Positions 3,001 through 6,000 of a DNA stretch of 62,355 bases are shown here, piece after piece. Origin of the DNA: a virus (lineage: Duplodnaviria; Heunggongvirae; Uroviricota; Caudoviricetes); the IMG/VR virus record IMGVR_UViG_2534682166_000005. The stretch is one strand, 5' to 3'. The position numbers are program-made. Position 1 is the first letter of the stretch. Every line of letters begins with the position of its first letter.

Positions 3001-6000
3001 AATCTGCACGCTTTTCTTGGTATTGGTAAAATGTTTGCTCACTGGATCAAGGACAGGCTGGGTGAATATGGATTCGTTGAAAATCAAGATTTTGTGATTG
3101 CTTGCCAAAATTGGCAAGCAAAAGGTAGAGGCGGTCACAACCGCAAGGAATACCACCTCACCCTCGACACAGCCAAAGAGCTTGCGATGGTTGAACGTAA
3201 CGAAAAAGGCCGCCAGATACGCCGCTACTTCATCGAGTGCGAAAAGAAACTTCGCAACATTCAGCCAGTACAAGCAGAACCACAGCCGCAATTCACAGCC
3301 GAGGAAATCATCCTCCTTTGCTACATGCAGCTCTGGATGGAAAAAGCCCAACAACTCAGTAAACAGCTATACCCCGTCATGAGAGAACTGAACTCTGATT
3401 ACTATGGAAAGCTGTTTGATCTGGCCTACGAAACTCGTCATATAACCAACCGGACTCGCGACACATTGCTCCGCGAAGCAGCAAAACTTGATCCCGCCAA
3501 CTATACGGTGCACAGGGCCAGAAGTATGCTGGCGCAACTAAGAGCAAGACAATTTGAATTCTGAAACCAAAGGAGCTTCGGCTCCTTTTTTCATGCCTGA
3601 AGGAAAGGAAAATGGCAGATATCATCGACAATGCCGCTGAAATCGAAGAATTGCAGCGCAATCTCTCCCTGCAAAAATACAAATCCGATAGTAATGCCCC
3701 ATCTGCTACTCATTGTTGCGAGTGTGGCGATCCGATAGATGAGCGGCGACGCCAGGCTGTTCGCGGATGCCGAACTTGCGCCAGTTGCCAGCAGGATATT
3801 GAACTTATCAACAAACAGAGAGGTGTGAAGTGAGCATAGACACCACTATAACGATCGATACGGCCCTCAACACAGGTCTGGCGCTTCTTGGTTATTTTTA
3901 CATTATGTTCTGCGCCGGGCGGTGGCTATCGCTGTTGTTACTGAAAAAATGGAATAAATGCCGTAAGCAGGATCAACGCCAGAAGGCAATGAATGCGTTT
4001 TCCGAAGCCTTCGGGATTGACAGCATGGAGCCAGGAGGTCCAGCTCGCGTAATTAGCAGAGGTGACGTTGTAATTCTTGTATACCGGAGCGAAGAGAAAA
4101 ATGAGCGAGATTAACTATCAGGTACTGCGTGAAAAGGCAGAAAAAGCAACGCGTGGTGAGTGGTCGCTCGAATATGGAGAGAACCGATTTGATGGTGATG
4201 ATGCACTAATTCATCGCGAGGCTGCTGGATATATTCCCATTTGCAGAATTGAAGGAGCACATCCTGAAAGCGGTTTCGATGAAGATTTCCAAATGGAACA
4301 GCAGGCCAATGCTGAATTCATCGCCGCAGCCAATCCGGCTACCGTGCTGGCACTGCTGAATGAACGGGAAAGAAACCAGCAATACATCAAACGCCGCGAC
4401 CAGGAGAACGAGGAAATTGCTCTTACGGTTGGGAAGCTGCGTGTTGAGCTTGAGGAAGTAAAACAACACGCTGAAGAATTATCCGAAACCAAGGCTGTTC
4501 GTAACCAATGGCGGCCAGATATTTGCCCAATAACCGGACGTACATTTTTCATGTGGATTGAGCATCCAACATTGGGAAATGTGCCGACATGTGGTGGCCC
4601 ATTAGATAGTTACACCATTCCAACAAAGGACGGTGACGGTGAGTTTTCATGTGAGCGTTACGATCATGATTTTGGCGGTTGGGTAGAAAGCGAATGTCTT
4701 GGGTTATATCTGATTGATGATAGAGAACAATGCAGGGTCTACGAACTGGAGGAACGCGTTAAAGAGCTGGAAACGCGGGAAGTTCATTTGCCGACTCGCT
4801 ACGGCCTTCGATATGGACATCCGATAAATGATGATGAGCGCCACGTCATGATACCTAAAGAAAATGGCAGTTGGCTTTACCTGATTGACCTAGAACACGC
4901 ATTACGCGTCGCTGGCATTCGCATCAAAGGAGAGTGATATGGCATTAACACACCGCGAACTCTGTCAGATTGCGTACAAGTTCCTTAAGCGCAACGGGTT
5001 CAAGGTTTGTTTTCATGACCGCTTTATAGCTGTAACCAGTACCGGAGAACAGCCAGATGCTATGGGATTCAGAAATTCAGCATCATGCCTGATAGAGGCG
5101 AAGTGTTCTCGTGCTGACTTGTTAGCAGATAGAAAAAAGCGTTTTCGTAAAAATCCGTCTCTTGGAATGGGCGACTGGCGATTCTTTATTAGTGAGCCGG
5201 GAATTATTTCAATTGAGGATTTACCACCTGGCTGGGGATTACTTCACGTTGTTAACGGAAGAGTACGGAAAGTACATGGGTGGCCCAAGGGTAATTGCTG
5301 TTGGGGTAATCCTGACGATAAGCCATTTACTGGGAATAAGCAGGTTGAATGCGATTACATGTTATCTGCATTAAGGCGCATGGAGTTGAGAGGGCACCTT
5401 AATGAAATATATGACGGTGTGATTGTTAATAAGAAAGAAGGAAACGCGGCATGATCACTATTACCAAAGGGCGACTGCTGACAATCAAACAGTGGCGCGA
5501 AACATACGGACCTGGTAGCAACGTTGTACTGCCAGCAGAAGAAGCGGAAGAACTGGCACGAATTGCACTGGCATCGCTTGAGGCAGAGCCGGTGGCGTGG
5601 AAGGTAACCTTCACGCAAATTGACCGTGAATATAACACGTTCACTGGTATGTATCCTGACAAAGCAGAAGTCGAACGGTGGGTGCGGCTGCATAAAGCAT
5701 GTAATTTTCGGGCAGATATAACACCGCTTTATACCGCTCAGCCAGTGCCGGTAACTCCGGATGGTTGGATAAGCTGTAGTGCGCGAATGCCCGCTCAAGA
5801 TGATTGGATTTTAATTTATTCAAAGCACGGCGAGTATATGGCAGGACAGGTAAAAGGGGAATACGTGGAGTTGAGCGACGGCACTTTATCGTGGTTAGGG
5901 AATGCCTTGTTCTGGATGCCGCTACCAGAACCGCCGAAGGAGGTACGCCAATGACCTAGCCTGAAGCATTTGCAATTGTAGTGGCTGCCATTTCGATCGC

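Follow-up and report, generated by a model that had tools for sequence, protein, structure and literature searches.

The Stx1 phages 75/02 Stx and phiPOC-J13 (Sepvirinae, Diegovirus) are the closest described relatives of the element considered here. Phage 75/02 Stx is reported to be inducible and transducible and to integrate in ynfG (PMC5447701), and phiPOC-J13 lysogenizes MG1655 at the same gene (PMC4193171). We analyzed a stretch of 62,355 nucleotides, IMG/VR record IMGVR_UViG_2534682166_000005 (the window), which is Escherichia coli O104:H4 chromosomal DNA with one stx-negative, 933W-like (Sepvirinae) lambdoid prophage in ynfG; bases 1 to 8000 match numerous complete chromosomes of this serotype at 100% identity. 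The prophage has the same integrase, attP, and target gene as the two phages, the same att-proximal block (Ant, DksA-like, DUF4752, Ea22-like, hypothetical, and DUF551 genes; 94 to 98% identical where aligned), and the same second Ant-type gene beside ninB, large LPD protein, and late-gene order. In contrast to these Stx1 phages, it has no annotated stx. It carries a single AntA-type gene in place of the tandem pair of 75/02, its Ea22-like gene differs from that of 75/02 in the core, and its replication/nin arm holds an extra DUF551 gene and 27-aa peptide gene that 75/02 lacks. A preliminary description of the sequence had drawn attention to inverted duplicate modules toward its two ends. We conclude with high confidence that the main pair consists of two paralogous antirepressor-type genes with an exchangeable cassette, one on each divergent arm of a single prophage, and that nothing indicates a second phage or an inversion.

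A BLAST search of the window against itself returned four inverted matches, the first of which joins positions 3283-3591 to 43666-43358 (72.3% identity over 314 nt, E=4e-37). The left gene (2929..3564, plus strand; "phage antirepressor Ant" in RefSeq) encodes an AntA N-domain (Pfam, 91 bits) and a P22AR_C-type C-domain (P22_AR_C, 35.5 bits). The right gene (43385..44056, minus strand) combines an ORF6N N-domain (71 bits) with the same type of C-domain (31.4 bits) and lies at the roi position, just upstream of ninB, in a roi/ninB context as in HK620 and its relatives. All four domains score above the Pfam gathering thresholds, and the alignment of the two proteins is confined to the C-terminal 101 aa, at 62% identity. 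The nucleotide match is a mosaic of 94% identity at 3283-3352 (with a 47-nt exact run), 61% at 3353-3536, and 91% at 3537-3591, the last patch spanning the final codons, the stop, and a hairpin. We designate the shared C-terminal cassette with its terminator the L allele on the left (3283..3591, plus strand; hairpin at 3569-3588, U-run to 3591) and the R allele on the right (43358..43666, minus strand; hairpin at 43361-43380). The common hairpin is terminator-like, with an 8-bp stem, a UUCG loop, and U6 (-14.2 and -15.5 kcal/mol); a consensus terminator scan missed it, but folding shows it clearly. The inverted similarity that the preliminary description had placed at 3290-3592 and 43356..43670 was thus confirmed to within a few bases, and it exists at the nucleotide level, far above chance, rather than as short protein-level motifs. 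However, "closely similar" overstated a match of 72% overall with a diverged core and N-domains of different Pfam families.

Combinations of this kind are known from the Bro network, whose domain-swapping families include AntA, ORF6N, Bro-N, and P22_AR_C, among others (PMC10111431, citing Iyer, Koonin and Aravind 2002). Both window proteins have this architecture, an N-terminal AntA or ORF6N domain fused to P22_AR_C, and we see no essential difference from the published network, AntA, ORF6N, and BRO-N N-domains being combined with one type of C-domain, P22_AR_C. The window offers a within-genome example of the network in which the nucleotide-level boundaries are visible. In an alignment of six copies, two core alleles lie between the shared patches, and the outer sequence is locus specific. 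The L allele occupies the left loci of the window and 75/02, and the R allele occupies the right locus of the window, the nin locus of 75/02, and the left loci of the E. coli TOE17 prophage and the Stx1 phage record AP005153, so that R is found at both loci. L-type left-locus sequence occurs in roughly 110 records at 95% identity or more and R-type left-locus sequence in roughly 244 at 90% or more, O157:H7 included; both counts are approximate, since some megablast alignments run on across the diverged core. A synthetic query with the L cassette in nin-locus flanks was found to occur naturally: strain 2014C-3338 has it joined to ORF6N (100% coverage, 96.5% identity). In strain S19-651, the cassette portion of the query is joined to a BRO family gene beside ninB.

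The presence of both alleles at both loci, and on a BRO-N gene, points to cassette exchange at conserved boundaries. The C-terminal domain therefore behaves as an exchangeable cassette, which across the two loci is joined to no fewer than three kinds of N-terminal domain. The suggestion in the preliminary description that a module had been captured by recombination therefore stands, in that the shared modules bear the marks of recombinational exchange both in their allele distribution and in the natural L-in-nin cassette. The C-terminal core, of which there are at least two alleles, has been exchanged between loci and N-domain types, and we infer that this took place via homologous recombination or gene conversion at the near-identical boundary patches, the common route to lambdoid mosaics. 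Lambdoid mosaics are known for conserved gene-boundary sequences, and the cassette pattern agrees with this.

The left end of the prophage was examined with respect to attP. RefSeq gives the order ynfF, a 5' ynfG fragment (2408-2491), the prophage of about 60 kb, and a 3' part of ynfG past the window end. Sequence reading, the RefSeq ynfG fragments, and attP continuity place the attL core, TTTAAAG, at 2486..2492 within the split host gene; TTTAAAG is the only sequence common to both prophage-host junctions. Prophage DNA begins at about 2493, and attR lies about 58 nt beyond the int stop codon, which coincides with the window end. The tyrosine integrase gene int (61192..62355, plus strand; Pfam Phage_integrase, 155 bits) has the same orientation as the left block. 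The right end (60000 to the attR core) was joined to the left end (2492 onward) as a synthetic attP and aligned to origin-spanning 75/02 Stx. Against this circular Shigella phage, the query gave a single high-scoring segment pair (query 1-3118) that runs across the junction at 2415 with 94.5% identity, and the junction sequences agree save for one base duplicated in constructing the query. The left block is covered over 82 to 89% of its length at 94 to 95% identity in 75/02 Stx and POCJ13 and matches the extreme end of sequenced Stx phages. In 75/02 Stx, the order is int, the record origin, AntA, Ant, DksA-like, DUF4752, Ea22-like, hypothetical, and DUF551, all oriented as int, followed by the LPD gene on the opposite strand. 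In AP005153, the attachment site is annotated between int and an AntB-type block.

Since the joined prophage ends reproduce the circular 75/02 Stx, the left block is this phage's own DNA just past attP, downstream of and co-oriented with int, and not the remnant of a second phage. Integration cuts the circle at attP and so leaves the block at the far end of the prophage, opposite the other early-left genes. The resemblance of the block to early-region genes, which the preliminary description had noted, is real: Pfam and RefSeq assign AntA/P22AR_C, TraR/DksA zinc finger, DUF4752, Ead/Ea22, and DUF551 genes to about 2493-6354. The same geometry is known from the lambda b region and sib, where int-co-oriented genes and a retroregulator lie across attP and are parted from int on integration. 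Lambda b has ea47/ea31/ea59, whereas the window block has ea-type and Ant genes. In the window prophage, a strong 17-bp hairpin (2564..2603, plus strand; called as terminator-like) is formed by a pair of CAAAGCTTTG palindromes, with a T-rich tail directly after it. The fold of 2545-2625 has -23.1 kcal/mol (z = -4.5), and none of 200 shuffles was as stable. In the circular phage, the hairpin would lie about 210 to 250 nt 3' of the int stop and 70 to 110 nt past the att core, a position that by analogy only is that of lambda sib/tI; alternatively, it could be a pair of protein-binding sites. Related Ea22/TraR-type intragenomic repeats are also described as "arrangement c-e" in the 933W-like Morioka V526 O157:H7 Stx1 and Stx2 phages (AP005153 and AP005154), and in AP005153 these repeats are annotated on either side of int-attP. 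However, the Morioka V526 repeats are direct and within the early-left arm, whereas the pairs in the window are inverted and between the two arms.

The remaining three matches concern the DUF551 genes and a gene boundary. The second joins 5912-6045 to 46687-46554 (79% over 134 nt, E=3e-26), the third 5748-5791 to 46866-46823 (95% over 44 nt), and the fourth 4908-4941 to 47260-47227 (94% over 34 nt). The left DUF551 gene (5451-5954, plus strand) and the right one (46645..47227, minus strand; RefSeq start at 47227) are both assigned by Pfam and RefSeq, and their proteins are 37% identical. Their nucleotide similarity is limited to the 44-nt patch at the start of the domain (left copy at 5748..5791, plus strand) and the patch of about 134 nt at the 3' end of the gene and in the small-peptide region (left copy at 5912..6045, plus strand). 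The identity profile of 95/50/89/67% resembles that of the Ant-type pair, with conserved edges and a diverged core. The 34-nt patch comprises, on the left (4908..4941, plus strand), the end of the Ea22-like gene, a ribosome-binding site, and the next ATG and, on the right (47227..47260, minus strand), the sequence directly upstream of DUF551 with its start codon; it is another conserved gene boundary.

On the right, an intact hydrophobic 27-aa peptide open reading frame, MNWPEAFAITGVAMAITFLVYVICRWG (46565..46648, minus strand; absent from the RefSeq annotation), is ATGA-coupled to DUF551. Translated matches that cover it from end to end occur in 90 phage records, mostly beside DUF551/EaA genes, an Actinobacillus phage being among them. 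On the left, the corresponding frame (5951..6034, plus strand) reads ATG ACC TAG, with the TAG at codon 3 (5957-5959), and its 75/02 Stx homologue has the identical stop plus a frameshift; the left frame has decayed. Of the duplication of the DUF551 and peptide genes described earlier, the inverted nucleotide patches are therefore real, but the proteins have diverged and the left peptide frame is broken. An annotated 91-aa hypothetical gene (5956-6231, minus strand) that has no Pfam match overlaps the relic antisense. Its 75/02 counterpart is only 60 aa long and diverges after about 50 aa, and the 91-aa gene seems doubtful or truncated.

The layout could also be read in terms of a second phage, an inversion, or a recent duplication. 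That the left block is what deletion has left of an earlier second prophage, in tandem at ynfG, is extremely improbable. It is true that about 40 kb of late genes part the block from the other early genes, that RefSeq flags several of its genes as partial or frameshifted, and that the left small-peptide frame is broken. However, when the prophage ends are joined, they give without a break the attP region of a relative that is circular and transducible, and the block has identical placement and orientation in 75/02 Stx, POCJ13, the PA-series phages, and AP005153, the last of which has att annotated alongside. The reading frames of the supposed pseudogenes (4101-4937 and 4939-5454) are uninterrupted, and no int, xis, or second att is annotated between the left block and the LPD38 gene. 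For 5955-6354 in particular, no second att or int remnant is annotated; the 7-bp core is too short to search with, and no search for a third att was made. A recent inverted duplication of an Ant-DUF551 segment within the genome, followed by divergence, would agree with the inverted orientation of both module pairs and with the near identity of some patches. It is nevertheless very unlikely. In the direction of transcription, the left side runs from Ant to DUF551 and the right side from DUF551 to Ant, and this lack of colinearity indicates two separate pairs of related modules rather than a single duplicated block. Furthermore, the N-terminal domains and upstream RNAs come from different families, the identity values are bimodal and not uniform along the repeats, the left DUF551 is present in 75/02 Stx but the right one is absent, and the alleles are common to many other phages.

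Inversion of the late region of about 40 kb by homologous recombination between the inverted repeats, giving two isomers, had been raised in the preliminary description. The 47-nt exact run, the two inverted patches at 91% identity or more, and the Bet/Exo, RecE, NinB, and RusA proteins encoded by the prophage (RefSeq annotation) speak for it. An inverted circle, which would put ninB, Q, and the late genes downstream of pL-int-attP-Ant, might still be viable. We searched with a chimeric junction through the 47-nt run; this single junction, rather than its reciprocal or those of the DUF551 pair, was judged sufficient because the homology of the DUF551 pair is shorter (exact runs of 25 to 26 nt). 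The predicted junction was found in none of 5,426 complete E. coli genomes at 80% coverage or more (best, 58%) and in none of 50,697 phage records, each searched assembly being a single consensus in which rare within-culture isomers would not show. The comparison with related prophages that had been proposed thus gave the inverted junction in none of them. In some genomes, the match to the query extends beyond the crossover, since the C-terminal allele found on the right in the window is carried there by the left Ant gene. The two copies in strain ES5 are of the same allele type, about 95% identical over about 300 nt as counted from the alignment, with exact runs of more than 60 nt, and the ynfG prophage keeps the native, un-inverted arrangement despite these near-identical copies. 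AP005153 has no roi-type gene and so provides no within-genome test of more similar copies. RecA recombination drops steeply with short, diverged homology, and mismatch repair opposes it; the repeats in the window are 72% identical overall. The population shows non-reciprocal cassette replacement with the flanks retained. No invertase is annotated anywhere in the window that would indicate a segment of the Gin/Cin/Hin type, and the repeats, separated by about 40 kb, are part of coding sequence. Taken together, these data make inversion a highly improbable explanation. The two cassettes are inverted relative to each other because they are carried on divergently transcribed arms.

Each of the two Ant-type genes of the single prophage lies behind structured RNA elements. 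The c4 antisense mechanism of P1, with which these elements can be compared, is summarized in PMC12197685. The right gene is directly preceded by a C4 antisense RNA (44110..44194, minus strand; Rfam, 66 bits against a gathering threshold of 45), an isrK RNA (44220-44297, minus strand; 69.2 against 50), and, overlapping isrK, a c4-a1b1 target element (44257-44310, minus strand; 44 bits against 46.7). Sites exactly complementary to the C4 segments GGTTTC and GTTCCTAA lie both upstream (44256 and 44272) and between the RNA and the ATG (44106 and 44078). The right cassette thus has, as does P1/P7 immI (c4, icd, ant), a C4-family RNA with complementary, a1/b1-like target pairs upstream and, from the RNA to the start, at the 5' end of ant, and the stretch 44110-44310 (minus strand) looks to be a P1 immI-like module at the roi/nin position. 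The window differs from P1 immI in that no icd-like leader open reading frame is annotated, no search aimed at one having been made. In contrast to P1 Ant1/2, the putative effectors are AntA or ORF6N proteins with P22AR_C, and their regulation is deduced by comparison. Gifsy-1 (isrK-orf45-anrP) is likewise a lambdoid prophage with isrK ahead of an anti-repressor-like gene; there, IsrK activates the translation of AnrP, and AnrP expression raises transcription of the antQ operon. However, the window has a C4 RNA between isrK and the gene, and the position relative to Q differs, the window locus lying upstream of ninB.

The left cassette resembles P1/P7 immI in a similarly shaped RNA with covarying targets, but this RNA appears to belong to another Rfam family, sRNA-Xcc1. 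The sRNA-Xcc1-like RNA lies directly upstream of the left Ant gene (2803..2887, plus strand; 49.9 bits against a gathering threshold of 53; E = 3e-8 to 4e-7). In relatives, sRNA-Xcc1 matches of 69 to 74.5 bits stand upstream of every AntA-type gene. The loop of hairpin 2 covaries with a target that precedes the RNA and with a second that abuts the Shine-Dalgarno sequence, and its three variants are exact complements of their targets (six copies, four types). Loop CUGACG pairs with CGUCAG in this window and TOE17, loop CUUGUAAG pairs with CUUACAAG in 75/02, and loop CUUAUUUG pairs with CAAAUAAG in AP005153. In the window, the complementary sites CGTCAG are at 2732..2737 (plus strand; b1-like) and at 2912..2917 (plus strand; b2-like); the latter, 11 nt ahead of the ATG, continues into the Shine-Dalgarno sequence of Ant (CGTCAGGAG). 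This covariation suggests C4-like antisense control with specificity classes. A sigma-70 promoter-like site, TTGACA-18-CATACT, precedes the RNA and Ant (2689..2718, plus strand; 10/12, a consensus match only), and promoter-like sites in the region are no more numerous than in shuffles. For the APSE phages, a BRO-N gene has been noted together with C4 and isrK, and an ORF6N gene with sRNA-Xcc1 upstream of it (preprint). In the literature searched, this APSE note was the sole mention found, with no description of a C4-style role of sRNA-Xcc1 in Stx phages. The 24B_1/d_ant pair of Phi24B was considered as a counterpart of the left RNA and Ant and was set aside, as it represents a different locus (24B_1 is between lom and vb_24B_43, and d_ant is downstream of R).

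A run of nine C residues forms the 3' end of the left RNA (2879-2887), with seven C residues at the same place in TOE17, and the tract is possibly prone to slippage. At the att-proximal locus of relatives, two RNA-plus-AntA units stand in tandem (L003, 16136-16552; L006, which is TOE17, 5421-5811), and the window has one. This single unit seems to combine the RNA type of the att-proximal unit with the Ant gene of the distal unit, as expected from deletion between tandem units. The ynfG prophage of TOE17 (NZ_CP069093.1, 5000-11200) appears to be without the whole structural region, and its Ant, TraR, and DUF4752 genes nearly abut phosphatase and lysis genes.

Several points weigh against parts of this interpretation. 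Similarity to P22_AR_C is modest (E = 1e-8 and 2e-7), the sRNA-Xcc1 match in the window and the c4-a1b1 match fall slightly below their gathering thresholds, and the allele counts are rough. The left RNA offers a single 6-nt loop and target pair in this window, and the case for its regulation is the covariation in a handful of relatives. The left block may be transcribed from pL through attP or from the promoter-like site at 2689-2718, and the exchange may have taken place inside a single genome or among phages that share a host through co-residence or co-infection; the data fit either alternative in both cases.

The rest of the att-proximal early-type block (3612..5954, plus strand; open reading frame calls, Pfam, and RefSeq) has the gene order of 75/02 Stx. 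Besides DUF551, it comprises a TraR/DksA zinc finger gene (3612-3833), a DUF4752 gene (3830-4114), an Ead/Ea22-like gene (4101-4937), and a 171-aa open reading frame (4939-5454), all on the plus strand. In RefSeq, two partial pseudogenes stand for the Ea22-like gene, and a frameshift is flagged in the gene that follows; both genes are uninterrupted, the former with 286 aa and a TTG start, and 75/02 Stx has an annotated gene of 516 nt, equal in length, where the 171-aa frame sits. The flags probably reflect mosaic sequence and not decay.

Beside int, the recombination genes are on the plus strand. The minus-strand run comprises, from right to left, a LexA-family repressor (51312-52025), cro/cII, replication, nin, Q, lysis, terminase, portal, N4-gp56-type capsid (RefSeq), and tail genes and the gene for a 2783-aa LPD-domain protein with Pfam LPD38, LPD5, LPD1, and MuF_C. 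The capsid type and the large protein are late-gene traits of Sepvirinae, and the gene order and the int-attP-Ant continuity match those of sequenced members. No stx genes are annotated between Q (41436-41870) and the holin gene, where RefSeq gives a SASA-family esterase and small DUF genes; by annotation, the prophage thus lacks the stxA/stxB genes that lie between Q and the lysis genes in Stx-converting phages. An STnc100 small RNA match (40894-41099, minus strand; 165 bits) was found downstream of Q, and a sok antitoxin RNA (46174-46348, minus strand; 110 bits) lies beside hokD. Direct repeats of 41 to 60 nt with 95 to 98% identity (49581-49624, 50353-50415, and 50447-50505) are in or just upstream of a 360-aa replication-initiator-like gene and may be origin or operator repeats. 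The 635-aa tail fiber gene holds diverged direct repeats (24591-25067; 80 to 88%, 42 to 56 nt).

The phage carries two paralogous antirepressor-type cassettes of the Bro network, one per divergently transcribed arm. The att-proximal cassette runs from the sRNA-Xcc1-type RNA through AntA and the P22AR_C-type domain to the terminator, and the roi/nin cassette from the isrK/C4 RNA through ORF6N to a C-domain of the same type and the same terminator. By analogy with C4 in P1, both genes may be translationally gated by their RNAs, and both proteins may act as antirepressors. In Phi24B, deletion of an Ant protein with a P22-Ant-like C-terminus slows pR' activation on induction; this finding and the AnrP effect on the antQ operon support the involvement of such proteins in derepression.

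The phenomenon is already known in kind, as lambdoid mosaicism and Bro-network domain shuffling, since Sepvirinae phages with this architecture have been published and the genome has been studied heavily. For 933W-type prophages, it is normal to find a block of early-type genes at what seems the "wrong" end, and such a block is not to be labeled a remnant. The RefSeq pseudogene flags on 4101-4937 and 4939-5117 fall on frames that are actually open. Antirepressors affect the ease with which Stx-type prophages are induced, and the position of both genes behind C4-like RNAs is a modest lead. We tentatively propose, as an idea with somewhat less than an even chance of being correct, that the sRNA-Xcc1 RNA is a C4-style immunity RNA with specificity classes, that the second, isrK/C4-gated antirepressor shares an exchangeable effector domain with the first, and that swaps rewire the pairing of gate and effector. 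If so, cassette swapping could influence induction and cross-talk among co-resident Stx prophages.

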